This document shows positions 22,850-51,022 of a stretch of DNA of 64,000 nucleotides, in pieces. The DNA comes from Dictyostelium discoideum (Eukaryota), in assembly GCA_000004695.1 (NCBI GenBank), contig CM000152.2, positions 224,001 through 288,000 of the forward strand. Reading direction: 5' to 3'. Below the pieces are notes generated by a model. It was not told the DNA's origin. It worked only from the letters and a program-made list of their open reading frames with translations, and did not search any database. Position 1 is the stretch's first letter. The number at the start of each line of letters is the position of its first letter. The position numbers and the translations under genes were made by a program.

Positions 22850-23623
22850 AAAAAACATTAACCACTAAAATAATTATAGGTGCTTATAATTGTAATAAAT
22901 TAAATTGTTCATCAAAAAATACAAAATGTAGAACATTCTCTTGTACTAGTGTTGTTGGATGTTATTATACTGATAAATGCACTAGCCCAGATTTATGCCA
23001 TAATTCTGCTTGTAATGCTTCAACTGGAAATTGTACATTAACTACTATCAGTTGTAATGATAATAACCCTTGTACTGATGATTTTTGCCATCCAGGTTAT
23101 GGTTGTTATAGTGTTCCAAACAGTTGTGATCCAGGTGTAATTTGCCAACAAAATTGTAATGATAATGATCCATGTACATATGATTTCTGTGATGCTTTAA
23201 ATATTTGTCGTCATTCCGAAACCTATTGCAATGATGGTGATGCTTGTACATTAAATACTTGTGGTGTAAATGGTTGTAACTTTACAAAAATATCTTGCGA
23301 TGATAATGGTAAGATATATATATATTTTTGTCTACTCAAATTGTTAACAAAAAAAGAAAATAATAATAACATTTAATTTATTTTATTAAATTTTAGATCC
23401 ATGTACTGCCGATTATTGTTCAACATTATATGGTTGTTATCATGAACCAATCGAATGTTCAATTAAAGTACCATGTAATATTGATTCCGATTGTAATAGA
23501 AATAATGGATGTGAAACTTTTACTTGTAATTTATCAACAAATACCTGTGATTACTATGCTAAAAATTGTGGTGGTTGGCCATGTATTAATAATCAATGTA
23601 CAACTGGTTCAATTTCAAATTAA
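22720..23623 (+). CDS. Secreted cysteine-rich Dicty_CTDC-repeat protein, three exons, about 238 aa.
   Basis: Exon 1 (22720..22777) encodes the signal peptide MAKIIISLILLLSLFSFSY(G); the donor is TATG|GTAAAT. Exon 2 runs 22880..23308 after an ...aattatag acceptor and ends at donor AATG|GTAAGA. Exon 3 runs 23397..23623 after ttttag and ends with stop TAA. The product contains CNDNNPCTDDFC, CNDNDPCTYDFC, CNDGDACTLNTC and CDDNDPCTADYC, which are canonical Dictyostelium C-x-D-x-N/D-x-C-T-x-D-x-C extracellular-matrix repeats (Pfam Dicty_CTDC). It is not in the ORF track because no exon alone makes a 60-aa ORF. Confidence 0.65.
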
Positions 23624-23667
23624 ATATACCTTTACATTTTCATATATTTATTTATATATTTATTTAT

Positions 23668-23705
<38 letters not shown>

Positions 23706-23809
23706 AAATGTTCGAATTCGATTGAAATTTAAGAAATAAAAGGTAGGTGGAAAATTAATATATACTCAAAACAGTTTTATTTATATTTATTATTTTTTTA
23801 AAAATGATC

Positions 23810-25150
23810 ATATTTATTAAAAATTATTATATATTTCTATAAATTATTTAAATTTTTAAATTTTGAATATTCAAATAATAATTCATCAATATCACTAACA
23901 TCTTGAAGAGTTGTTGGAATTATATAGCTTTTATCTATTTGAAATTAAAATATTAATTAGTAAATATAAAAAAAAGATACATTATTTAATAATGAAAATA
24001 AAAATGAAAACATACTATTAAAAATTGAGGTAAATATTGATTTGATTGTTTTCCAAGTTCTTGTTTTTGGTCTAATTATAAACACTTACAATCTTTTAAC
24101 TATTATTTATTTAATATTTGGGAGAGTAGAAAGATTTTTTTTAACTATATTGTTAATTTCATTTTTTAATGAGATAGTATCTATATTTATATTTTCTAGT
24201 ACTAATATTGCAGCAATTTCTTTACCATGAATTTCATCATCTATACCAATAACACAAGATTCAAAAATATTTTGAATTTTTAAAATTAAATTTTCAAGTA
24301 CACCACCATTAACAATATAACTATCATATGAAAATGAATCATCATATCTTGAACAAAAATACCATAAATTATTTTCATAATAACCAATATCTTTTGTTCT
24401 AAAATATCCTTCATATTCATTTAAATATGGTTGCTTATATATTAATCTATCATTAATATCACCCAATAAACGATTACGTACACCAGGTGGAATGGAAACT
24501 TTATAACAATTTCACCTTTTCATTTTCTTTATTTTCAATTACACTAGCTTGATTATTATTGTTGGAGTTGGTGTTGGTGAATAAATATTTAACAGATATG
24601 ATAATCCTTTTTGAGTATAACCACCAAATATTATATTATGTGTTGCACCAATTCTACAACATGATAATGTTGATATAATTAATTTAATACTATTTTGCAT
24701 ATAAATGATTACAATATCACCTTTTTAATACCTAAATTCTTTAATGATCTTAAAATTTACAAACTTTATCAAATAATTGTTTATATGTAATTTGAGTTGA
24801 AATTTGTTTTGATGGTATTTCATGTACAAATGCGATTTCTTCACCTCTACCATTAACAATATGTTTATCTAATGCATTATAACATGCATTTAATAATCCA
24901 CTTGAAAACCATTCATTATTATTACTATTATAAATATTTTCATATTCTTTATCTCTGTAATATAATAATAATAAAACTATTAATAAAATAATAATTAGAA
25001 GCCATACCAATGAACATATTTTTTAGTAACATCATTCCAAAATGATAATTGATCATTTAATCCATACTGGTAATCATTTTCATAATCAAAAGGTTTTGAT
25101 AATTTAAATTGTTGTTTTTTATTATTATTATTGTTAATCATTTTAATAAT
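23810..25150 (-). pseudogene. Truncated, internally deleted duplicate of the downstream acetyl-CoA-synthetase-like gene.
   Basis: Two minus-strand ORFs (24750..25010 and 24107..24466) are about 85-90% identical to the N-terminus (…NEWFSSGLLNACYNALDKHIVNGRGEEIAFVHEIPSKQISTQITYKQLFDKVCKF) and the C-terminus (…GYFRTKDIGYY…VIGIDDEIHGKEIAAILVLEN…) of the 26014..27708 gene. At 24480-24600 the nucleotide alignment jumps from the equivalent of about 26490 to about 27440, so about 950 bp of the AMP-binding core are absent. The same flanking 5' and 3' noncoding blocks are present (compare 23810-24100 with 25690-26060). Confidence 0.6.
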
Positions 25151-25686
25151 TAAATAATTATTTTACATTATTTTGAATTTTTATTAGCTCTATAATAAAT
25201 AAAATAATAGAAAAAAAAAAAAAAAAATTTAACATTATTTATAGGTTGCTGAATAGAGAGTAAAAGTAAAAAAAAGAAATAACCAGTGGTACCAAATAAA
25301 ATTATTTTTCACCACTTTAGTGCTGATATTTTTATATCTGACCAGCCAACCTTAATTCAACACAACAATTTTTTTTTATTTTTCTTTAATTTAATTTATT
25401 GGGGGAGAGTTGTTCAAAAAAAAATAAAGGGTGGCAAACTCAGCAGCTCCACATAAAATTACTTTCCACCACTTTGATGTTGATTTTTTCATATCTGGCT
25501 TTTTAATAAAAAATAATTTATTTCAACAACAAATTTTTTTTTTTTCTTCAAGAATAAATCGCAAACAGTTTTATTTATAATTATTATTTTTTAATAGTTA
25601 TTATATTTATTCATTTTAACGTTTATTTCTTTTGATCCCCCAGAATAGGAGAGAGATGGAGAGTTTGTGAAAATTACTATAAATTT

Positions 25687-28038
25687 CTATATATCATTGG
25701 AATTTTTAAATTTTGAATATTCAATTAATAATTCATCAATAACAATATCATCTTGAAGAGTTGGCGGAATTATATAGGATTTATCTATTTGAAGTAAAAA
25801 TATTAATATAATTTTAATAATAGATACAGTTAATAAAAATAACAATAATAAAAATAAAAATGAATTCATACTATTAAAAATTGATGTTAATAATGATTTA
25901 ATTCTTTTCCCAGTTCTTGTTTTTGGTCTAATATTAAAAATAATAATTTAGTTAATATAATTGCTTTTATTGTTATTATTATTATCGAAGATTATTATTT
26001 TAATTATAAACACTTACAATCTTTTAACTATTATTATATATTTAATATTTATGCAAGTAAAAAGATTAGTTTTAACTATATTATTAATTTCATTTTTTAA
26101 TGAGATAGTATCTATATTTTTATTTTCTAGTACTAATATTGCAGCAATTTCTTGACCATGGATTTCATCATCTATACCAATAACACAAGATTCAGAAATA
26201 TTTTGAATTTTTAGAATTAAATTTTCAAGTACACCACTATTAACAATAACACTACCATATGAAATTGAATCATCAGATCTTGAACTAAAATACCATACTT
26301 TATTTTCATCAAAATAACCAATATCTTTTGTTCTAAAATATCCTTCAAACTCATTTAAATAATGTTGCTTATATAATAATCTATCATTAGTATCACCAAA
26401 TAAACAATTACATAAACCAGGTGGTAATGGAAACTTTATAACAATTTCACCTTTTTCATTTTCTTTATTTTCAATTACACTAGTTTGATTATTATTGTTG
26501 ATTTTTGAAACTATTTTAATATTATAACCAGGTGCAACTTTACCAATAGCATCAACACTACAATTTTTTAAATTTAAATCATTTTCAGTTGAATTATAAA
26601 TCATTGGAAATCCAGATTCAGTTTGCCAATAATCAATTATTATTGATAATTTTAAAGTATTGGTTAAATAATTTATTGTCTTTTCATAAACTTTTTCAGA
26701 ACCAATTGATACATGTTTTAAATGTTTTAAATTAAATTGAAATCTAATTTCACCATTTGGGTCAACCATTTTTATTAAATTCATTTGGTGTGGTGTTGTT
26801 GGGAATACATTAACATTATACTTTTCAATTAAACTCCAAAACATTCTAACTTTTTCAGTATCATTATCATTTTCATTTAATGGACCTTCAATAAAAACTG
26901 ATTTACAGCCAGAAAATAAGCAACCATAAAGCAATGTACTATGACCACTAACCCAACCAATTGAGCTTAAACTTAAATAAGTATCACCCTTATTTAATTT
27001 AAATATATTTTTAACTGAATAACAAAGTGATGCAATATGACCAGCTGTTTCTCTAACAATTGCTTTTGGTTTACTTGTTGTACCACTGGTATTCATAACA
27101 TAAATTGGATGATTTGATTCAACTAATTCATACTCTAATAATGGTTCAATATCACCACCATTAACTAAATCATTCCAATCAAAAATATTAAAATTATGAT
27201 TATTATTTTGATTATTATTATTATTGTTCTTATTATTACCATTATTATTATAATCATTTCTATTGAATAAAATTATATTTTTTAAATTTAAATTTGAATT
27301 TATTAATGATTCTATTATTTCTTTATAAAAATAATATATATCATTATTTAATAAACCATAGTTTGAAGTAATTATTAGTTTTGGTGATTGATTGAAATTT
27401 GGTGTTGGTGTTGGTGTTGGTGTTGGTGTTGGTGTTGGTGTTGGTGTTGGTGTTGGTGAATAAATATTTAACAAATCAGTTAGTCCTTTTTGAGTATAAC
27501 CACCAAATATTATATTATGTGTTGCACCAATTCTACAACATGATAATGCTGATATAATTAATTCAATACTATTATGCATATAAATTATTACAATATCACC
27601 TTTTTTAATACCCAAATTCTTTAATGATCTTGAAAATTTACAAACTTTATCAAATAATTGTTTATATGTAATTTGAGTTGAAATTTGTTTTGATGGTATT
27701 TCATGCACAAATGCAATTTCTTCACCTCCACCATTAACAATATGTTTATCTAATGCATTATAACATGCATTTAATAATCCACCTGAAAACCATTCATTAT
27801 TATTACTATTATAAATATTTTCATATTCTTTGTCCCTATAGTATAATATTAATAATTACTATTATTTTAATTATAATATTAATATTATATATTATTAATT
27901 TAACATCATACATACCAATGAACATATTTTTTAGCAACATCATTCCAAAATGAAAATTGATCATTTAACCCATACTGGTAATCATTTTCATAATTAAAAG
28001 GTTCTGATAATTTATATTGTTGTTTATTATTATTATTA

Positions 28039-28096
<58 letters not shown>

Positions 28097-28103
28097 CTAT
28101 CAT
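25687..28103 (-). CDS. Acetyl-CoA-synthetase-like (ACSS / AMP-forming acyl-CoA synthetase) protein with poly-N and (TP)11 inserts. There are at least 2 exons, and a small 3' exon is possible.
   Basis: Exon 1 (28103..27916) encodes MIDNNN...KQQYKLSEPFNYENDYQYGLNDQFSFWNDVAKKYVHW, the ACS N-terminal-domain motif. The donor is CATTG|GTATGT, the intron (27915..27836) is 80 nt, and the acceptor is tatactatag. Exon 2 (27835..26014) continues DKEYENIYNSNNNEWFSGGLLNACYNALDKHIVNGGGEEIAFVHEIPSKQISTQITY...KGDIVIIYMHNSIELIISALSCCRIGATHNIIFGGY...MNTSGTTSKPKAIVRETAGH...YWQTESG...GYFRTKDIGYFDENKVWYFSSRSDD...VIGIDDEIHGQEIAAILVL. These are the core AMP-binding motifs. A conserved GTAAGT at 26014-26019 and an in-phase acceptor tttttaatag|TATG suggest a possible short last exon (about 25866..25687) that would supply the A10-like IIPPTL segment. 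That exon is uncertain. Confidence 0.7.
27402..27468. repeat. (GGTGTT)11 hexanucleotide repeat encoding a (TP)11 tract in the ACS-like protein on the minus strand
   Basis: The run ggtgttggtgttggtgtt... is read directly. It is in frame with TPTPTPTP in the 564-aa ORF. The pseudogene copy carries only about 2 units. Confidence 0.85.
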
Positions 28104-28380
28104 TTTATTAACTATCCAATAATAGTGATTTTATACATATATTATTTTGAATTTCTATTATTTGTGTGTTTATAATTTAAAATAATTAAAAGTAAAAAAA
28201 AAAAAAAAAAATAATAAAAATTTAACACAACAAATCTGTTTTTTTTGTTGTGTTAAATTTTTATTATTTTTTTTTTTTTTATTTCTTTTAATTTTTTAAT
28301 AAATAAAAAAGGATATATATTTTTTTTTTTTTTTTTTTTTTTATATTTATAAATGTAATAAAATTTTATTTAAATATATT

Positions 28381-31025: not shown

Positions 31026-32194
31026 TTATTATTATTATTATTACTATATATTTAGTTTATTGGTGTGTGTATGTATGTGTGTGTGTGTTTGTTTATTGTT
31101 TATTATTAGTTCGAGTGTGTGGGTTATTTTTTTATTTTTTATTTTTTATTTTTTTTTATAAGTATAGTTTTTTTTAATATTTGTGTGTTGTGAGTTTTAT
31201 TTTTCTTTATTCTTTTTATTTTTTATTTAAATTTTTATTTTATTTTATTTTATTTTATTTTATTTTATTTATTATTATATTACATGCAATAAAATGAAAT
31301 TAATTTAATATTAATGGATTATATTGGGATGAAAAAAAAAAAAAAAAAAAAAAAAAAATTTAAAAAAAATCTATTTGAACGAATTAAAATTTTTAAAAAA
31401 AAAAATTAAAAAAAAAAAAATAAAAAATTAAAAAAAATAAAAAAAAAAAAATAAAATAAAATAATTTAAAAAATTATATTCAAATACAAACGTTGAAAAC
31501 AATTACTCTCCCAGAAATTTGAGTAAAACTTAATTTTTTAAACATTTTTTTTAAATTGAATCAAATGTAACCAAAGTAATACGTAGTTTAAAAATAAAAA
31601 ACTATATAATATATATATTTTTTTTTAAGTAGGGATAAAAAAAAAATAAAAAAAAAAAAAAAAAGAGTTTTATTTTATTTAATATTATTTTAATTATTTT
31701 TTATTTTTTTTAATTATTTATTATTTTATTGATTAAAAAATTGGGATTTGAGATTTGGGAAAAAAAAAAAAAATATATATATTTTCATTTTTTTTTTTTC
31801 ATTTTTTTTTTTTTTTTAACAATTTAATTTTATTTATTTTTAATATGGATTTAGTACAGAAAAATAAAACACTCAAAAATACACAAAATGATATGAAATA
31901 TAAAAAAAATGAATGTAAAATATATATGCTTTTTGAATTTTTTAATTATTTTATTTTTTTTTTATTTTTTTTTTTTTTAATTTTAAATTCAAAGAATCAA
32001 TAACACATATTAATACTTTTAAAAAATTAAATAAAATTAATTTGAGATTTATTTTGATAGTTTTTGAAAAAAAAGATTTATTTTATTTTTTATTTTTTAT
32101 TTTTTTTTTTTTAATTATATTATTTTAAATTGTTATGTTTGCTAATAATGGTAGTCTTTTGAATGAAAATAATTTTGTAATTCCGAAATATACC

Positions 32195-33992
32195 TTAAAA
32201 TAAAGGATTAATTTCTTTAAGAATAAACATTATATCAGTGTAGTGATCACTTGCTGGAAGATCAGTATAATTTTCAAGTTTTTTCAATGCCGAGTTCAAA
32301 ACTGATATGATATGGCCCTCTAGTTGGAATCTGAAATTCTTGGTGGTACATATGTATTTAACATTAAAATTACTATTGATAGTTAATCTATCTAAATAAA
32401 TTGAATTATATGTAACATATGTTACTTTTTTATCTCTTTCAATTGAAATTGTCTTTTGTTTAAAATCTTTCCAAACATCATTACCACGAAAGCTTGAATT
32501 ATTTACAAAATATTCATTTTCAATTTTAGCAATTTCAGTACCAACTTCATCAATCGATGGTCTAACATTGACATCAAGTGAACACATTCTATTAATTAGT
32601 GATTCAAATGATAATGGAGTACTTTCAGGATAAATTAGTTTAAATCCATCTGAACGAATCATTCTAATTTGGAACTGTATTTACCAGTCATAGCAAGTAC
32701 TATTAACTTTAATAGAAGTGATAAAAAAAAATAATAACAATAAATTAATAAATATATATTAATTAAAAGGATTGATTGATTAAATGAGTAATGAAGAACG
32801 TACCTCCCATAAGACGATTCCAAGAGAAAAGATATCACAATGATGATCAAAAGTATAACCATCCCCACCTAATAATGGATCCATGTAACCAGCTGTACCA
32901 ATTGGTTTCAAAAGAGTTCTTTTTGTATTCTTTTGATAATCAGCTATACCTCTTCCGGTACCAAAATCACTAATAACGATTCTACCATCATTTTGAACTA
33001 AAAAGTTGGCAGTTTTAATATCCCTGTGAACCATTTGTTCATCACGAAGACATCTCATTGATGCCAATATATCATCAATGATTTTAAAAATGGAATGCCC
33101 TTTGCAAACATTTTATTGATTTCAGATGGTTTTGATTGTAAATTGAATTGAGCCATTGGCATTATCAAAAAAGCGGATTCATTCATTGAACACCAAAAGT
33201 TTTAACAACCGTAGTTCCTTCATATTTACTAACTTGACCAACAGCTGCAATTTCTTTTGCGAAATTGATGAAGCAATTATTACTACCAAAAGCCATGGCC
33301 TTAAATGCTGCCAATCTACCATTCAAGCAGCCTCCATACACCATTGCATTACCGCCAGAGCCAATAGTAGAATCCATATCAACATAACCTCTTAAAGGAT
33401 CAATATTAGTTATACGTGATAAATGATTACAAAATGATTGAGTACCCAAGTTTTTATCATTTAGTGAAGTAATTTGACATTTTTTTAAAAGTGTATCCCA
33501 AGTTAATTTAATTTCATCTTTTATAAATATTTTTTTCCATTTTTTTAGTTCTTTTGATCTTCCAGTATAATCAAAATATTGATTTATATAGTTTTCCAAA
33601 TTTTCAAAAATAGAACCGGAAGTAAACTCTAATAAAATAAATGACGGAATAAATGATGATAATTTGAAAATTTTATATGTTTTTTTGATTTCCATTACTC
33701 TATATACTATTTCTCTAGAAACTAACTTTTTAGATCTTTTTTTACCAAATTCACCACCACCCAATAAAACCAATTTAATTATATTGAGATTTGCACGTTC
33801 AATTGAATAATCTAAAACAGTACGTAGTTTATTATCTTGAATTGAATAATCATAATTTTTTATATAATTGATAATTGATAAGCAAAGGCAAACCATCGAT
33901 TCATTGGGATTTTTCATTAATGAGTGAAATGGTGTTTGACCTTTTGCATTCTTCTTTTTGATTTGAATCTCTAAAATATTTTGGACCAGCAT
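32195..33992 (-). pseudogene. Ankyrin-repeat protein kinase gene (3 exons). The N-lobe is disrupted by two single-nucleotide frameshifts, so this is either a pseudogene or the sequence has indel errors.
   Basis: The 5' ORF (33992..33183) has an ankyrin-like GQTPFHSLMKNPNESMVCLCL, then GSGGNAMVYGG (G-loop), AFKAM (VAIK) and helix C FAKEIAAVGQVSKYEGTTVVKTFGVQ, and then hits a stop. The next 115 nt encode, in a -1 frame, NESAFLIMPMAQFNLQSKPSEINKMFAKGIPF (beta5/hinge/helix D). A second -1 shift is needed to enter the frame encoding IIDDILASMRCLRDEQMVHRDIKTANFLVQNDGRIVISDFGTGRG...GTAGYMDPL...DIFSLGIVLWE. A clean intron (donor GGGAG|GTACGT at 32803, 129 nt, acceptor atacag, exon 32674..32195) then adds FQIRMIRSDGFKLIYPESTPLSFESLINRMCSLDVNVRPSIDEV. 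The only phase-consistent splice across the gap (GTAAAT donor, caaag acceptor) would delete subdomains IV-V and pass through the kinase-like coding text, so I favour the frameshift reading. Confidence 0.5.
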
Positions 33993-34120
33993 GTTTTAAT
34001 AAAAAATGAAGAAAACTATTTTTTTTGAATTTCATTTTCTAGTCAAATTTCTTTGTAAACATCATATAGATTTTTGTACTTTTTACATTTATTATCAGCT
34101 ATTATTACTCCAGTTAAATT

Positions 34121-35068
34121 TTATTTAGATAACGATTTGATAGCTTCAATATTTTCATAAAAACTCTTTGTTAATGAATTTTTTGGTTGACAATTTGCTA
34201 AACTGACTAATGATTTTTCAAAATAACTATCTTTAGGAGTTTCTGGTTGAGATTGCGGTGCTGTTTGAGATTCTGATACAGATGATTGAGAATCTAATAA
34301 TGTTGATGATGATTCTGATGAGTATAATAGTTGTTGGCTTTCTAATGGTGGAGATGGTTGAGATTCTAATACAGATGGTTGAAATTCTAATGGTGATGAT
34401 GATGATGGTGATGATGATGGTGATGATGGTGATGATTGGGATAATTGTTGTTGAATTTCTAATAATGGTGATGATGATGATGATGATGATGATGGTGATG
34501 ATGATGGTGATGATGGTGATGATGGTGATGATGGTGGTAATGGTGGAGATGGTTGAGATAATTGGGTTGGAGAATCTGGTGGTGATAAGTCAATTGGCGA
34601 ACTGGTGATGATTGTAAAAGAGATGATTGAAGACTTAATTGGATTGGTGATTGTGAAGGTGATTGATTTGGTGAATTAATTACAATTAATGGTACTTGGA
34701 ATGATACTTTTGTTTCAATATCATTTGAAGAATCAGAAGCAGACTTTAAGATAAAGTCAAATAATGATAGTTTTGTATGATCAACCTCTACGGACTTAAA
34801 AACGACACCAAATTTTTCAGCTTCATTATTTTCAGGGGTTGTATCACTATTGGTTTGGGAAGTATCACTTTCAGAGACAGTGAGTGAAACAATTTTTTTA
34901 AAATCTCTATCAGGATCTTTATCAAGATGTTCAAGATTTATTCCATATGTGTCAGTACCAACAAAATTTTTATATAGCTCTGTAATAAAAAATAATAATG
35001 CAACTTTATAATATCCAATGGAGTCTGGGTCTACTTTTTTTTCCCTACTTTTTTTTCCCTATTTTTTT
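34121..35068 (-). CDS. S/P/H-rich hypothetical ORF (about 300 aa) with one internal frame discontinuity. It has no start codon in its exon, so it is probably preceded by a short 5' exon.
   Basis: Minus-strand frame 0 reads GKKVDPDSIGYYKVALLFFITELYKNFVGTDTYGINLEHLDKDPDRDFKK...SPNQSPSQSPIQLSLQSSLLQSSPV. A -1 frame then continues DLSPPDSPTQLSQPSPPLPPSSPSSPSSPSSSP(S)n...ESQTAPQSQPETPKDSYFEKSLVSLANCQPKNSL...KSLSK* (stop 34121-34123). The switch is near 34640. It is absent from the ORF track because there is no ATG. A candidate 5' exon is ATGCCTACTTTTTCATCATTTATGAAGAGG|GTAAAT at about 35375-35404. Confidence 0.3.
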
Positions 35069-35685
35069 TTTTTTTTGATTATTATTATTATCATTTATTA
35101 CTATATAAAATGTAAATATTTCAATTAATATGAAAATAGTATTATTAATTTTCTTTGTTTTAAATTTTAAAAATTGTTTGGCTTCATAATTTCTCAACCA
35201 AAAGGTAATTAATTGTTTTGAAAATTATAATGATAATTTATTACCTTATAATAGACATTTTTAATTTTTAAAATTAACATGTATTTCAGAAATAGATGAA
35301 TCAATCGTCAAATCTCATGGGCTGTTCAGTAATGAATGCTTGATGCTTTCAATAGTTATTTACCCTCTTCATAAATGATGAAAAAGTAGGCATTAACCCA
35401 GAAAGAAGTGCAAGTAAATTATGACAAGGATAATGATCGTAAAATTAAAAATAAGAATTGGTTGGTGATGTAAAATAAAATAAAATAAAATAAAATAAAT
35501 AGTTTCTCCTTTCTTTATTTTTTCCACTCAAATTATCCAGTATTACCAAAAAGTTCAAAAATTATTTAATCCAGATGAAAATAATAGAGTTTAAAAATTA
35601 ATTTTATATTATTTAATTTTAAAATCCATTAGTTTATTAATTAAATTAAATAAATTACCATTTTTATTTTATTTTATTTTATTTT

Positions 35686-38139
35686 TTAATATTTTAAATT
35701 AATATTTGAATTTTTTAAAATAAAATCTTTTAATTCAATACTACCATGAGTGGAAGCGATAATGTAACAATTTAAATAATCATCTTGAGTGAATAAATTC
35801 GAATGATTTGTAAACAAATGAGAGAAAACTTCTAAAGCATTCAATTCACCAATACTTTGTAATAATTTTGATAAAAACATGGTTTTACTTTGTTGATCTT
35901 GATTACGTTTATCCATTATAAAATTTAAAAAACTATCTAATGTTTCAAAATTACAACGTTTAATAATATCACTAAAAACTGAATAAAAAAATAAATGATC
36001 AATAAAATTTATCATTTTCCCTGTAGGTTTATAAAATTCATTAAATTTATAAATAATGTTATTGTTGTTGTTACTGTCAATTTCTTTACAATCAATATTT
36101 TGATAGTATTCTATGATTTCATTAAAAATTTTAATTGTTTTACATTTTTCAATTCCAAAACTATCATAAATACCAAAACTATTTGATAATTCATCTTTTA
36201 TTAAAAAACATCTTTTAGAATCAACATCTTGTCTATTTTCTAAAACCCATTTTAATTTTTCTTTAGAATTCAAACAACTGTATTGCATATCAATTGGTGT
36301 TAATTCTGAAACAATTATTATGAATTTCCATAATGGAATATTTGCCATAGGTAAAAATGGATTTATACTATCATTTTTATTATCATCATAATTATCAGTT
36401 TCATCTAAATAATAAATATTTACTTTTTTCTCCCAATTAATTGGATTACATATTGGTTGCTGTTGTGGTTGATCTTGTTGTTGTTGTTGTGATGGTGGTG
36501 GTTTAATTAATTTTAAATTTTCAATTTCAATTAAATTAACAGAAAGTAAGAAATTAAACATTTTCTGAGATTTTATGAATTTAAAATGATTTCTTTGTAT
36601 TTTAATGTTATTTTCAAGTAAACCAACTGGATGATTAATTAAAAATTGAATTAAATCAATATTTTCATTAATTATCAATATCATTATTATGACTTCAATT
36701 TTACCTTGATATATATATAATTTTGTAAAATAATCATTTATTAAAGAATCAATGAATTTTGATTTAACCGATTCTAAATGCTTTGGATTCTTTAATAGTA
36801 ATCCAAATAATGGATATTTTGGTATATTAAATTGAGATAAATTATTTAAAGATTGGAAAGCACCAATTGATTTCAATTTTTTATAATCACCCATTCCAAG
36901 TGCAAGTCTTACAGTTTTCTTATGAGAATACTCTGGGAAATAGTTATTATCAAATTTAGCATTACAAAACATTAAATTACTTCTAAGATGTAAACTACTC
37001 GTATAAAAAATAGACATTCTAACAATTGATCTAAATGATTGATTACAACAATCTAAATCCTTAACCAAACAATTCAATTGTCGTTGTAATTGTTGTTCAT
37101 CTCTAAATTTATCAAGTTGTTCAATTGATAAAATTACATTTTCAGCTTCTTTAGATTTATTTACAAATTCAACGAATTTATAATTTTTAAATAATTCTTT
37201 TAAATAAATTATTGAATAACATGTATTTAAACAAAATTCCAATGTTTTATTCTTTACTGAAAAATCAATTAATGATGTAAAATCATCATTATCATTATCA
37301 TCATCATTATTATTAATATTAATATTATTTTGTGGTGGTATTGAAATTTTAATTGAATTTAAAAAATGAATTGATTTATTTCTATTTTCCATTGCCCCAT
37401 ATAAAATTATTTTTTTTTTATAATTTTTATTTGAATAATCAATATTAATTAATTGATAATATATTTTTGATTTTTCATCTTCACTTAAAATACAACCAAT
37501 TTCATCTTTTAAATAATTTGCAATATTAATTGAACCAACAAGAATTGATTTATAATATAATGGTGACCAATTTATATTTTTATTTTTATTTTTACTACCA
37601 CCACCACTTCTTAAAATTGGTTTAAAATTATATTTTTTAATTAATATATCAAATGCTACAACACAGTCACATAATGTTATATAAAATGCTGTTGAATTAA
37701 TAATTGAACTATTATTATTATTATTATTATCAATATCATTAATAAAATATTTTGAATAATTTTTAAAAAGATTAAAATAAAATTCTTTATTCTTTTCACT
37801 ATTTTTTTTAAAATTTTTAAAAATCTCTTGAAAAGGAATTTTATTTGAATCAAATGTAAATTTTAAAATCATTGAATTTTTAACTTTATCTCTTAATAAT
37901 CCTTTATTATTAATTGACATTAAATCTACATTTTTTAATTGATAATAATTATAATAAATTCTATTTTCCAAAATTTCATCATTATAATATTGTTGTTGTT
38001 GTTGTTTTATTTTTAAATATTTAAATATAATTGTTTTAATATATTTATTTTTCCAAATTTTAAAAAATAAAAAATCCTTATTATTATTATTAATACTATT
38101 ATTATTATTATTATTACTATTTTTGTTGTTGTTGTCCAT
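35686..38139 (-). CDS. N/I/K-rich hypothetical protein, 817 aa, probably a Dictyostelium-specific family.
   Basis: A single uninterrupted [46 protein letters not shown]... It has no recognisable catalytic motifs, an internal poly-Q/P linker (PPPSQQQQQDQPQQQP), and AT-rich flanks with poly(A) tracts. Confidence 0.45.
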   Translation of the reverse strand: MDNNNKNSNNNNNNSINNNNKDFLFFKIWKNKYIKTIIFKYLKIKQQQQQYYNDEILENRIYYNYYQLKNVDLMSINNKGLLRDKVKNSMILKFTFDSNKIPFQEIFKNFKKNSEKNKEFYFNLFKNYSKYFINDIDNNNNNNSSIINSTAFYITLCDCVVAFDILIKKYNFKPILRSGGGSKNKNKNINWSPLYYKSILVGSINIANYLKDEIGCILSEDEKSKIYYQLINIDYSNKNYKKKIILYGAMENRNKSIHFLNSIKISIPPQNNININNNDDDNDNDDFTSLIDFSVKNKTLEFCLNTCYSIIYLKELFKNYKFVEFVNKSKEAENVILSIEQLDKFRDEQQLQRQLNCLVKDLDCCNQSFRSIVRMSIFYTSSLHLRSNLMFCNAKFDNNYFPEYSHKKTVRLALGMGDYKKLKSIGAFQSLNNLSQFNIPKYPLFGLLLKNPKHLESVKSKFIDSLINDYFTKLYIYQGKIEVIIMILIINENIDLIQFLINHPVGLLENNIKIQRNHFKFIKSQKMFNFLLSVNLIEIENLKLIKPPPSQQQQQDQPQQQPICNPINWEKKVNIYYLDETDNYDDNKNDSINPFLPMANIPLWKFIIIVSELTPIDMQYSCLNSKEKLKWVLENRQDVDSKRCFLIKDELSNSFGIYDSFGIEKCKTIKIFNEIIEYYQNIDCKEIDSNNNNNIIYKFNEFYKPTGKMINFIDHLFFYSVFSDIIKRCNFETLDSFLNFIMDKRNQDQQSKTMFLSKLLQSIGELNALEVFSHLFTNHSNLFTQDDYLNCYIIASTHGSIELKDFILKNSNINLKY

Positions 38140-38159: not shown

Positions 38160-38197
<38 letters not shown>

Positions 38198-38492
38198 AAA
38201 AAAAAAAAAAAAAATTTAAAAAAATGAAAATAAGATGGAATTATAATTTTTAAATTAATTAATATTTAAATTTTTATTTTATTTTCTTTTTTTTTTCTTT
38301 TTATTTTTATTTTTATTTTTTTTATTTTTATTTTTATTTTTTTTTTTAAATTAATTACACACTCTTTCAAAATTCCTTATTTATATTTTTTACAACCTAA
38401 GTAGAAATAAAAAAAAGAGTGATAATTATATATATTATATATTATTTCTTTCTTGATTTTATATTATTATTATTATTTTTTTTTTTTTTTTA

Positions 38493-39444
38493 TTACAATT
38501 GTAAATCTAAAACAATTTTTCTACCATGACCAGATTGTTGTGATTTTAATAAAGCTTGATCAAATTCAGAGAATTTATGTTTTTCAATTAAAAGTTTAAA
38601 TTGTTTCTTACGGATAAGATCAAAGATAGCATCATAGACAGATTGTTTTTCAGAGTCAGTATGTTGTTCAAACCATTTATTTAACCAAAAACCACGAATT
38701 TGAATGTTACGGAAGATCAATTGAGAGGTTGGAATGGTGACTGGTTCACGAGACATACCACCATAAGTGACCAAGGTACCATTGTCAGCGAGGATTCTTG
38801 ATAACTCGGTGGCGGATTGACCACCGACGGCGTTTAATGCCAATTTTGGTGATGGTAAATCAGAGATTAATTTTCTGAATGCTGGTGTACGAACGTACTC
38901 TTCAGAGACGACGATGTCGCCACCCAACTGCTTGAGACGTTGGACGTTGTCTTCGAATTCTGAACCGTCACGAATGACATTGATGGTTTTGATACCACGT
39001 GCCTTTGCCAATTGAATGACTGACAAACCAACCATTGAGTTGGATGCGTTTTGAATGATGACATCGCCTTGTTGTAACTTTACGAAATCGTTCAATAACA
39101 AATAGGCAGTGGTTGGATTGATTGAAATGGTGGATAAGTATTCGGTTGGAATGTCTGATGGTACTTTAAATAATTGTTGTTCACTCCAAACACCTTTACT
39201 TCTCCATGATCCAAAGTGTTGTTTCATTGATGGTACTACTAAATCATTCTCTTTTAATCCTGTAACACCACTACCAACCTTTTTAACAACACCAACACCT
39301 TCCATACCTGCTACACCTCCAACTTGAACATTTGTACCATAAGTACCTTGAATAATATTTAAATCTGCTGGATTAATTGGTGCATGTAACATTTCAACTA
39401 AAACATCTTTATTTGAAATTTTATCTGTAATATTTTCATTTTCA

Positions 39445-39484
<40 letters not shown>

Positions 39485-39754
39485 AATATAGATATATTAA
39501 TATTTTTTTAATTTAATTTTTATTTATTCATTGCACTAAAAATATTGGGGAAACTTCCCCCTTCTGTGATCAACAATTTGGTTTAACCACACATACATGA
39601 TTTTTATTATTTTTTTTTTTTTTATTTTTTAATTTTTTTTTTTTAAAAAAACTTACTTTAAAGCAGTTGATGGTGAACCATGTGAAGCGATTTTAACACT
39701 TCTTGAAGTTGAATAACGACGAACTAATGAAATGATATTACGAGTAGAATTCAT
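38493..39754 (-). CDS. mecr: Mitochondrial trans-2-enoyl-CoA reductase (MECR/Etr1, MDR-superfamily enoyl-thioester reductase). Two exons, 350 aa.
   Basis: Exon 1 (39754..39657) encodes MNSTRNIISLVRRYSTSRSVKIASHGSPSTALK, an R/S/T-rich mitochondrial presequence. The donor is TTAAA|GTAAGT, the intron is about 209 nt with poly(A), and the acceptor is aaaaaaaaag. Exon 2 (39447..38493) continues (K)IENENITDKISNKDVLVEMLHAPINPADLNIIQGTYGT...GVAGMEGVGVV...TISINPTTAYLLLNDFVKLQQGDVIIQNASNSMVGLSVIQLAKARGIKTINVIRD..., matching the MECR family throughout. The total is 1053 nt. Confidence 0.85.
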
Positions 39755-39803: not shown

Positions 39804-39839
<36 letters not shown>

Positions 39840-40254
39840 AAAAAAAAAAAAAAAAAAAAAAATCAAAAAATTTTTTTTATTTTTCTTTTTTTCAAAAAAA
39901 TGAAAAAATTATTTTACGCACCGTAGTTCGAAAAACATATTTTTTTTATTTAATTTTGTTTTATTTTTTTTTTATTTTTTTATTCCATTCGTCTAAAAAA
40001 TTTTTCGTTTTATATTTTCAGATTTATTTATTTATATAAATATATAAATAATAAATAAATAAAAATAATTTTTTTTTTTTTTTTTTTTTTTGAACATAAT
40101 TTATTAAATGAATAAAATTATAACAAAAAAATAAGTAATAATAATATTTAATATTAATAATCTATAAATTTATAGTTGTATTCTTGCATACTCCAATTAA
40201 TGAAATTTTAAAAATAAAAAAAAATAAAAAAATAAAAATAAAAAAATAAAAAAA

Positions 40255-46729: not shown

Positions 46730-46780
<51 letters not shown>

Positions 46781-47424: not shown

Positions 47425-48534
47425 CTAAAATTAGATTTAAAAAAAAATAAAAAAAAAATTAATAATTGGACAATACATTATTGTATAGAAAAAAAAAAAA
47501 AAAAAAAAAAAACCAGTTTAACAAATACATTTTTATATTTTAAATATATTTGATTTAATCTTTCTCTTTCATAACTATTTCTTGATTGATATCCAATTTC
47601 AATATTTGAATATCTGATTTGAACTCTTGATGATGCTATTTTTGAATTTCAAAAAAAAAAAAAAAAAAAAAAAAAAAATGTATAACTAAAATTATTAACT
47701 ATAAATAAAAACAATTATTAAAAAAAAAAGTTTAAAACAGAAAAAAAAAAAATGAGATACAAAGTAAATAAATACTATTGGTAAAAAAATATTTATAACA
47801 TAAAAAGTAAAATAATTATAATTTAAACTAAAAATAATAATATAAAAAAAATAAATAAATAAAAAATTAAATATAAAAAAAAAAAAAGATTAAAACGAGG
47901 TTTAAAAAAAATAAATAAAGAATAATAAACTATTAAAAATAGAACATTGTTATTAAAAATTTTGTTTATCTGTTTTTGCTCTATTAATAAAAATAATTAT
48001 AAAATAATTATTAATAATTTAAAATTTTAACACCAAAAATAAAGCTCACCCTCTCACAAAACTATGTGCTCCCGTATCATTTTCTTTACAACTTTTATAA
48101 ATCATCATTTAATATTAATAATTCAATTTGAACTATTAATAGTGGTAAAAGGGGGTGAAAAAAAAAAAATTTTCAAATATATATTTTTTTTTTTTTTATA
48201 TAATAATCTATGTTTAAACAGAATATAAAAAAAAAAAACCGTTGATAAATGATGGAGTTGAATTATTTGAATTTTTTCTATTTTAATATTTTTTTTTTTT
48301 TTTTGATCACAACCAACATTATTAAATTTTTTTTTTTTTTATTAATTTTTTTTTTATTTTTTTTTTTTATTTTTTTTATTGTTTATATTATATTTATTTT
48401 AATAGTTTTAGAACACAAAAAAAAAAAAAAAAATTGAGTCTTAAAATAACATTTTAAAATATTAAAAATACAAAAAATTGGACATAGTCGAATAAACTTC
48501 CAATTTCTTTTTTTTTTTTTTTATTTATTTTCAT

Positions 48535-49540: not shown

Positions 49541-51022
49541 TTAAATACTATAAGTAGTAGAATGAGTTGAACCACCTCTACCAGTCCAATTTACATGAAC
49601 TGGAGCACCTTTTGGATCATCAAGTAACTGGAAGGTATGAGCACCAAAGTAATCTCTTTGAGCTTGAACGAGATTGGCAGAGAGTTTAGCACAACGATAA
49701 CTGTCATAGTAGGAGAGGGCAGAGGTGAAAGCTGGAGTTGGGATACCGTGGAGTACTGAAATTGAGGCAACTTGTCTCCAACCATCTTGAGCGGCAGCTA
49801 ATTTATCTCTGAACCAACAATCGGTTAAAAGATTGTCAAGTTGTGGATTCTTATCAAAGGCTCCCTTGATTTCACCGAGGAAAGTTGAACGAATGATACA
49901 ACCACCTCTCCATAAGAGGGCGATATTACCATAGTTGAGGTTCCATTTATATTCTTTGGCGGCAGCTTTCATCATGGTGAAACCTTGAGCGTATGAAACC
50001 AATTTTGAAGCGAATAAAGCTTGTCTAACGGCTTCGATAACTTGTTCTTTGTCACCTGTGAATTTCTTGTTGGCTTCGTTTGGATTTGGACCAGCGAGAA
50101 TGGTTGAAGCTTTAACTCTTTCCTCTTTGAAAGAAGATACACATCTGGCGAAAACACTTTCGGCAACCAAAGTTAATGGGATACCGACATCTAAAGCATT
50201 GATAGCAGTCCATTTACCAGTACCTTTTTGACCGGCAGAATCTAAAATTGTATCGACAACGTAGGTGTTTGGATCCTTTTCACATTTCTTTGCGAAAATA
50301 TCGGCAGTGATTTCGATTAAATAGCTGTCAAGATCACCAGTGTTCCATTTGGCAAAAGTTTTTTGTAATTCATCATTGCTGAGACCGAGGTAATGTTTGA
50401 GGATGAAATAGGCTTCACTGATCAATTGCATATCACCATATTCGATACCATTGTGTACCATCTTGACGTAATGACCAGCACCACCATCACCAACCCAATC
50501 ACAACATGGTTGATCACCTGGTTGAACTTTGGCAGAGATTGCTTGGAAGATTGGTTTAACATGTTCCCATGCCTTTGGGTTACCACCTGGCATGATTGAT
50601 GGACCGAGGAGAGCACCTTCTTCACCACCAGAAACACCGGTACCAATGAAAAGGATACCCTTGGCATCTAAATCCTTTGTACGACGATCTGAATCGGTAT
50701 ATAATGAATTACCACCATCAATGATGATATCACCCTTTTCTAATAATGGTAATAAGAGTTGAATGAAATGATCAACGACTTCACCAGCTTTAACCATCAA
50801 CATAACTCTACGTGGGGTTTTTAATGATTGAACTAAAGTTTCTAATGAGTGACAACCAATGAATTTCTTTCCTTTACCTCTACCTTGAACAAATTCGTCA
50901 ACTTTGGATGTAGTTCTATTATAGACTGAACATGTGAATCCACGACTTTCCATATTTAATACTAAATTTTCACCCATAACGGCTAAACCAATTAAACCAA
51001 TATCACCTTTTGCTTCTGTCAT
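49541..51022 (-). CDS. gnd: 6-phosphogluconate dehydrogenase, decarboxylating. 493 aa, intronless.
   Basis: It has an N-terminal Rossmann motif GLIGLAVMGENLVLN, the 6PGD signature IIDGGNSLYTDSDRR, GTGVSGGEEGALLGPSIMPGG, and the C-terminal domain ...WTAINALD.GIPLTLV... GC content is distinctly higher than the surroundings, typical of a highly expressed housekeeping gene. Confidence 0.9.
   Translation of the reverse strand: MTEAKGDIGLIGLAVMGENLVLNMESRGFTCSVYNRTTSKVDEFVQGRGKGKKFIGCHSLETLVQSLKTPRRVMLMVKAGEVVDHFIQLLLPLLEKGDIIIDGGNSLYTDSDRRTKDLDAKGILFIGTGVSGGEEGALLGPSIMPGGNPKAWEHVKPIFQAISAKVQPGDQPCCDWVGDGGAGHYVKMVHNGIEYGDMQLISEAYFILKHYLGLSNDELQKTFAKWNTGDLDSYLIEITADIFAKKCEKDPNTYVVDTILDSAGQKGTGKWTAINALDVGIPLTLVAESVFARCVSSFKEERVKASTILAGPNPNEANKKFTGDKEQVIEAVRQALFASKLVSYAQGFTMMKAAAKEYKWNLNYGNIALLWRGGCIIRSTFLGEIKGAFDKNPQLDNLLTDCWFRDKLAAAQDGWRQVASISVLHGIPTPAFTSALSYYDSYRCAKLSANLVQAQRDYFGAHTFQLLDDPKGAPVHVNWTGRGGSTHSTTYSI

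Follow-up and report, generated by a model that had tools for sequence, protein, structure and literature searches.

A unitary pseudogene is a single-copy gene that has been lost in one lineage, as with primate GULO. In the kinome of Dictyostelium discoideum AX4, Goldberg et al. (2006; PLoS Genet 2:e38; PMC1420674) identified 15 ePK pseudogenes. One of these, listed in their Table S2 as DDB0204413p / DDB0204413ps / DDB0233273p and classed as Other / Dicty6 / pseudogene, shows the motifs AAFK, HRDIKTAN and DFG, with an 'X' after ...EGTTVV and an 'x' after ...KMFAK (PMC1420674). The Dicty6 family is specific to Dictyostelium and has two functional members in AX4, DDB0231196 and DDB0229339; DDB0204413ps is included in the family list (PMC1420674). 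Together with P0004, a protein of isolate ACTFIR, the functional kinases have a low-complexity N-terminus, ankyrin-like repeats and a kinase domain, a layout shared with the locus described here, as are HRD[IF]KTAN, DFG and the signature text 'GIW.SIFKI' and 'AMTG.Y..P'. These kinases are, however, intact and located at different loci, and their identity to the conceptual protein studied here is only about 34%.

The sequence analysed was a 64,000-nt stretch of D. discoideum DNA (hereafter the window), with a GC content of about 22% (78% AT, homopolymer-rich). The proteins that it encodes, among them the neighbouring DDB_G0278093, 6-phosphogluconate dehydrogenase (6PGD) and trans-2-enoyl-CoA reductase, match those of AX4 exactly. 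Its kinase text is the already published pseudogene DDB0204413_ps (DDB0233273p), and the feature was thus already known: the published conceptual sequence agrees with the window residue for residue, its two marks fall at the two frame breaks (sites 1 and 2, below), and exact peptide strings of the window text were placed in Dicty6 by the authors of the classification. What is added to the 2006 record is modest, namely an extended lesion map, a proposed unitary origin and apparent within-species polymorphism. The published model starts at MLVQNILE (33992), so it is without the upstream ~1.1 kb that holds a TAA, a TAG, a +1, a +2 and a -44 lesion, and it joins VLWE directly to FQ, so that a -31 deletion is hidden inside an extended intron. 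Orthologues, polymorphism and unitary origin were all beyond the reach of that model.

Translation of the minus strand in three frames placed the kinase N-lobe, hinge and HRD text in three successive frames, and reproduced the strings that an earlier sequence-only reading had picked out. The G-loop, AAFK, helix C and beta4 share a first frame ('...SKYEGTTVVKTFGVQ*') that is closed by TGA 33185-33183. The next (-1) frame opens with 'MNESAFLIMPMAQFNLQSKPSEINKMFAKGIPFL...' and carries 'MNESAFLIMPMAQFNLQSKPSEINKMFAKGI', and the following -1 frame opens with 'GHSIFKIIDDILASMRCLRDEQMVHRD...' and carries 'SIFKIIDDILASMRCLRDEQMVHRDIKTAN...DFG...'. The breaks fall at 33191/33190 (site 1) and 33095/33094 (site 2). 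They had been described as two 1-nt shifts; the net change is -1 at each and site 1 is a true 1-nt loss, but site 2 is a 7-nt deletion of TTGGAAA. Similarly, the K-to-HRD spacing of 92 residues obtained with the two-nucleotide repair is reproducible, but the unbroken D. discoideum allele has a spacing of 94 and the orthologues described below one of 97.

After frame repair, the conceptual protein scored 87.6 bits against the Pfam Pkinase profile (PF00069, cutoff 31.7) over profile positions 4-257 of 263, compared with 99.1 bits for the orthologue P0001. No single ORF of the unrepaired locus qualified as PF00069, and the 269-aa fragment that ends at site 1 gave no Pkinase match. The catalytic motifs IGSGGNAMV, AAFK, FAKEIAAV, HRDIKTAN and DFG can all be read, with YMDP in place of APE, yet they are spread across three reading frames. 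The split text is not a chance resemblance, since the repaired text reaches this Pkinase score and the orthologues read straight through both breaks. We conclude that the locus, on chromosome 3 of lab-strain-type D. discoideum, is very probably a young unitary pseudogene, left behind by the decay of a protein kinase gene (Other / Dicty6) that is specific to Dictyostelium. Its parts and lesions are listed in Table 1; the extent of the pseudogene is based on DNA alignments to two intact orthologue loci (L001 and L009) and on the peptide match to Table S2 of Goldberg et al.

Table 1. Features of the pseudogene, its intact orthologues and its neighbours. Positions are those of the window unless a locus is named; "both alleles" marks lesions common to the second D. 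discoideum allele, and "private" those found in the window allele only.
Feature	Position	Strand	Remarks
Whole pseudogene DDB0204413_ps as traced	32125..35063	-	From first recognisable homology to the orthologues' 5' region to the ancestral stop
N-terminal Ser/Pro-rich low-complexity remnant	34124..34940	-	Frame change near 34605-34604
Nonsense TAA	34121..34123	-	TTA or TTT in all four intact orthologues; both alleles
+1 A insertion	34054	-	Frameshift; both alleles
TAG stop	34041..34043	-	AAG or AGT in orthologues and second allele; private (lab strain)
44-nt deletion junction (41 nt vs ACTFIY)	33964..33965	-	Ankyrin-like region; frameshift; both alleles
269-aa ORF fragment	33183..33992	-	Ankyrin-like text, linker, kinase N-lobe; TGA end made by the site-1 frameshift
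Features of the 269-aa fragment	33302-33300 (AAFK Lys codon)	-	G-loop IGSGGNAMV, AAFK, helix-C Glu, beta4
Site 1: 1-nt T-run contraction, TTT to TT	33190..33191	-	GGTGTTTCAATG to GGTGTTCAATG; private
In-frame 9-nt deletion junction	33132..33133	-	AAATTATCC; K-L-S lost; both alleles; by itself not disabling
Site 2: 7-nt deletion junction, TTGGAAA	33094..33095	-	GGCATTTGGAAATCC to GGCATTCC; Trp-Lys text lost; private
Catalytic core, third frame	32804..33093	-	Helix E, HRDIKTAN (HRD 33028-33020), DFG 32968-32960, activation segment, subdomain IX to VLWE
Sole conserved intron, GTACGT...AAAG	32707..32803	-	97 nt, AT-rich; position as in all intact orthologues
31-nt deletion junction	32674..32675	-	C-lobe RPITTLFKGD text lost; frameshift; both alleles
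155-aa ORF fragment	32195..32662	-	Kinase C-lobe end (subdomain XI Arg in DVNVRPS) and C-terminal extension; truncated by +1 A at 32201
+1 A insertion near C-terminus	32201	-	Frameshift; premature TAA 32197-32195; from orthologue alignments
ACTFIR orthologue	L009 14322-17412		965 aa, intact, syntenic
ACTFIW orthologue	L012 16160-19251		961 aa, intact, syntenic
ACTFIZ orthologue	L013 16941-19986		942 aa, intact, syntenic
DDB_G0278093 (XP_642117.2), ORF	35686-38139	-	Exact AX4 match
trans-2-enoyl-CoA reductase (XP_642118.1), spliced gene	38490-39747	-	Exact AX4 match
6-phosphogluconate dehydrogenase (6PGD), ORF	49541-51022	-	Exact AX4 match

A protein search recovered P0001 (ACTFIY_005107, 'D. 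cf. discoideum'; 922 aa) at 79% identity and full coverage, and its locus (L001) is collinear with the window minus strand from 45101 to 23529. With the three further orthologues in Table 1, four discoideum-clade isolates (ACTFIY, ACTFIR, ACTFIW and ACTFIZ) carry an uninterrupted gene of 922-965 aa in collinear position, with 67-79% identity. Each has a single reading frame and one conserved intron after VLWE. Compared with these four, the window shows seven frameshifting indels (+2, +1, -44, -1, -7, -31 and +1) and two stop substitutions; the four orthologues were concordant each time and the window state was derived. The +2 (CC at 34605-34604) comes from the pairwise alignment to ACTFIR in low-complexity sequence, where its placement is alignment-dependent; consistent with this lesion, a tblastn of P0001 switches frame between 34645 and 34603. 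The first exon of the orthologues (ATGCTCCCAATTTTTAG...GTAAGA) had no match in the window above shuffled controls, and therefore the start codon may have been lost as well; the 5' gene model of the orthologues, including a 10-nt mini-exon, is a prediction. Within window positions 35100-35330, just 13 nt (ATTTCTGAAATAC, 35293-35281) match the beginning of intron 1.

Clustered with the 269-aa fragment at 90% identity is a 381-aa protein, P0124, from the Logan read assemblies. Six sequencing runs gave contigs of this kind, ~2.1 kb long (L003-L008). When aligned to window 34429-32344 they show 11 mismatches and exactly two gaps, and on the strength of this 99.1% identity they are here taken to be a second D. 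discoideum allele. The two gaps are an extra T at site 1 (TTT vs TT) and TTGGAAA at site 2. Moreover, the second allele has AAG in place of TAG 34043-34041, and it too carries TAA-34123, +1-34054, -44, -9 and -31. Because TAA-34123, +1-34054, -44 and -31 are common to both alleles, the gene was broken before the alleles diverged. The comparison indicates that sites 1 and 2 are later additions on an already dead lab-strain (NC4-type) allele and not inactivating events, and that the lesions of the pseudogene segregate within D. discoideum. Restoring two nucleotides would therefore not yield an intact kinase, since the two flagged lesions are among about nine and arose on a copy that was already broken. 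The second allele also has a private 195-nt deletion (window 32348-32154), flanked by a 5-nt TACCA direct repeat (microhomology), by which the C-terminal ~50 codons and the stop were lost.

Past constraint was estimated from Nei-Gojobori distances, with branch omegas obtained by three-point decomposition (window, ACTFIR, ACTFIY). Across all non-low-complexity codons omega was 0.38 for the window, 0.50 for ACTFIR and 0.52 for ACTFIY; within the kinase domain the values were 0.095, 0.375 and 0.23, respectively. Parsimony-polarised changes common to both D. discoideum alleles comprised 17 nonsynonymous (one a stop) and 17 synonymous, against 80% nonsynonymous under neutrality (P = 7e-5), and correspond to an omega of about 0.24 on the D. 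discoideum lineage. Private SNPs in the second allele are few, at about 3 nonsynonymous to 2 synonymous. The inactivation was recent, because purifying selection acted on the lineage during most of the period after its split from the tropical isolates. The earlier description of the gene as a recently inactivated kinase is thus supported both by the lesion set and by the selection seen in lineage-specific substitutions.

The low window-branch omega could, in principle, also be read as continuing constraint. We assign a small probability to the possibility that loss was favoured in the temperate/NC4-type lineage, or that a truncated product kept a kinase-independent role, for which the candidates would be, in lab strains, the 269-aa ORF with ankyrin and N-lobe text and, in the other allele, the ORF of 381 aa. 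If true, the low lineage omega and the surviving long ORFs would be more than a sign of youth. Both window-branch values are, however, dominated by time before gene death. In the four tropical isolates the kinase gene has been kept under purifying selection.

The same selection bears on the origin of the pseudogene. Goldberg et al. (PMC1420674) named putative parents for 13 of the 15 pseudogenes and preferred a history of duplication with later inactivation, and with two functional Dicty6 members in AX4 the locus might be a dead duplicate of such a parent and not a unitary loss. We consider this improbable. The closest D. discoideum-type paralogue, P0004 (from ACTFIR; orthologue of DDB0229339), is only 34% identical, whereas the four relatives hold intact genes of far higher identity (above) at exactly the collinear position, and the lineage experienced long purifying selection before the gene died. 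Intact syntenic orthologues and so distant a nearest paralogue point to a unitary pseudogene. In common with others of this class, such as GULO, there is an intact syntenic orthologue in relatives, several lesions in one lineage and no functional parent. Unlike unitary pseudogenes in general, this one is very young, its lesion sets are still segregating within the species and the lesions are mostly indels. The many indels beside few substitutions are attributable to the D. discoideum mutation spectrum.

In D. citrinum (L010) synteny stops just before the kinase gene and no homologue was found within 10 kb; therefore D. citrinum provides no outgroup state. Its synteny breaks off past 14605 (window about 35533), just downstream of the DDB_G0278093 orthologue, and the genes past that point are unrelated (EF-hand, dsDNA_bind, PTPLA, DUF829). 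This end could be due to a rearrangement breakpoint or to gene content that is lineage-specific. Between the DDB_G0278093 orthologue and the kinase gene, ACTFIR (L009 12572-14397), ACTFIW and ACTFIZ have ~1.4-2.8 kb of extra sequence that neither the window nor ACTFIY has, and which could reflect insertion or deletion.

That the kinase gene is otherwise intact, and that its frameshifts come from indel errors in sequencing or assembly, was the alternative left standing by the sequence-only reading. It is extremely unlikely, even though the genome is AT-rich and site 1 sits within a short T-run, a typical miscall spot. A chromosome-level D. discoideum assembly (GCA_054883475.1, locus tags ACTFIT), retrieved via lookup of a neighbouring protein, is base-identical to the window across 32100-35150. 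This assembly, from the Nanopore+Illumina project of Holland et al. 2025 (PMC12745789), probably represents, by inference, the lab strain AX2-214. Over 22.5 kb its only departures from the window are one SNP and seven differences in the length of intergenic homopolymers; the 3-kb locus is identical despite the latter. Moreover, site 2 and three other lesions are deletions of 7-44 nt, unlike homopolymer miscalls, and the other genes of the window have uninterrupted ORFs of up to 1416 aa. The 2006 curators checked reads and ESTs at frameshifts and stops that blocked a model, and put this locus among the pseudogenes, not the corrected genes (PMC1420674). Sequencing error is thus excluded by the independent assembly, the uninterrupted ORFs of the other window genes and the pseudogene class in the 2006 kinome paper.

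The length differences between the window and the ACTFIT assembly lie at 31760, 38195-38197, 39449-39452, 39805-39812, 39840-39844, 46732-46744 and 47511-47513. All are in or beside long intergenic or intronic A/T homopolymers, the window tract is always the longer, and they could be real slippage polymorphism or homopolymer compression in the assembly. The recent GenBank annotation of ACTFIT still makes three separate 'hypothetical proteins' (296, 269 and 155 aa) from the pseudogene, with window 32150-35258 corresponding to L002 12882-15945. Two of the three are KAM9948692.1, which is the 269-aa fragment, and KAM9948691.1. Old UniParc entries (UPI00004E366F, UPI00004E366E and UPI00004E4779) represent the same pseudogene fragments.

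A functional gene whose frame breaks are spliced out has almost no probability. All GT..AG pairs were enumerated; ten of them, of 94 nt upwards, would connect the first frame with the third in phase. The GTAAAT (33229)...CAAAG (33100) splice noted earlier is indeed phase-consistent, but it is not the only one, as had been thought, since ten pairs qualify mechanically. Automated predictors are known to have masked lesions with introns at such loci (PMC1420674). However, every candidate would delete beta5, the hinge and helix D of conserved coding text; for its own splice, the earlier reading had noted the loss of subdomains IV-V and a path through kinase-like coding text. All candidates are 31-36% GC, compared with typically <15% for Dictyostelium introns (PMC1420674). 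Furthermore, the same segment is read as coding in the four orthologues and in the second allele, and TAA-34123, +1, -44 and -31 would be left unrepaired. A Dictyostelium intron across 33229-33100 was rejected as a candidate: its ends and length fit GT-AG and 60-250 nt, while at 31% GC it is coding text in the orthologues.

Two programmed -1 ribosomal frameshifts yielding a kinase are scarcely credible as well: the net change is -1 at both breaks, a canonical-type slippery heptamer (T TTA AAA) stands in the correct register at 33088 (site 2) and kinase-domain omega is low on the window branch, but the 19-nt overlap at site 1 holds no slippery heptamer, the site-2 heptamer is expected by chance because the intact genes of the window contain 2-10 such in-frame heptamers per kb, the T5A4 run was already coding, and in frame, in the ancestral gene, the relatives and the conspecific allele read in a single frame without a shift, and the +1, +2, -44, -31 and two stops are beyond bypass by -1 slippage. 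As far as the sequence allows, then, no mechanism would restore the frame and no intact kinase is predicted from the window.

For the young unitary pseudogene that we favour, the ancestral protein would have been of roughly 920-965 aa, Ser/Pro-rich at its N-terminus and with ankyrin-like repeats, a complete kinase domain and a C-terminal extension, and its gene is still intact at the same chromosomal position in the four tropical discoideum-clade isolates. Recent inactivation in the lineage leading to the window would have been followed by indel build-up through ordinary replication slippage and microhomology deletion. The lesions common to the two alleles (TAA-34123, +1, -44 and -31) came first, in an internal order that we infer, and the -1 T, the -7 TTGGAAA and the TAG came afterwards, on the NC4/AX-type allele only. 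Decay was presumably neutral, and any residual product would presumably have lost its function.

Taken together, this is ordinary recent gene decay and, as one of the 15 kinase pseudogenes that the D. discoideum kinome already included, it has little weight for biology at large. For annotation and for the population genomics of Dictyostelium it has some modest value, the pseudogene being longer and more damaged than its published model. In addition, with intact tropical orthologues set against a unitary loss, nature would provide a 'knock-out versus wild-type' comparison for a kinase family that is specific to Dictyostelium and uncharacterised.

Lastly, the neighbourhood of the pseudogene showed features of its own. 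DDB_G0278093 is without a Pfam domain and is fast-evolving; its counterpart in isolate ACTFIR has 90% identity and 723 aa, compared with 817. A word-based protein search with it returned only three matches, and hardly any further relatives. The conserved trans-2-enoyl-CoA reductase gene was used in its place as the route to the loci of other assemblies. Downstream, the orthologue locus aligns repeatedly to window 23500-28250 (segments 28234-25929, 25172-24561, 24563-23934 and others) at 77-89% identity, a pattern that indicates tandemly repeated gene segments adjoining a gene with a predicted Dicty_CTDC domain.
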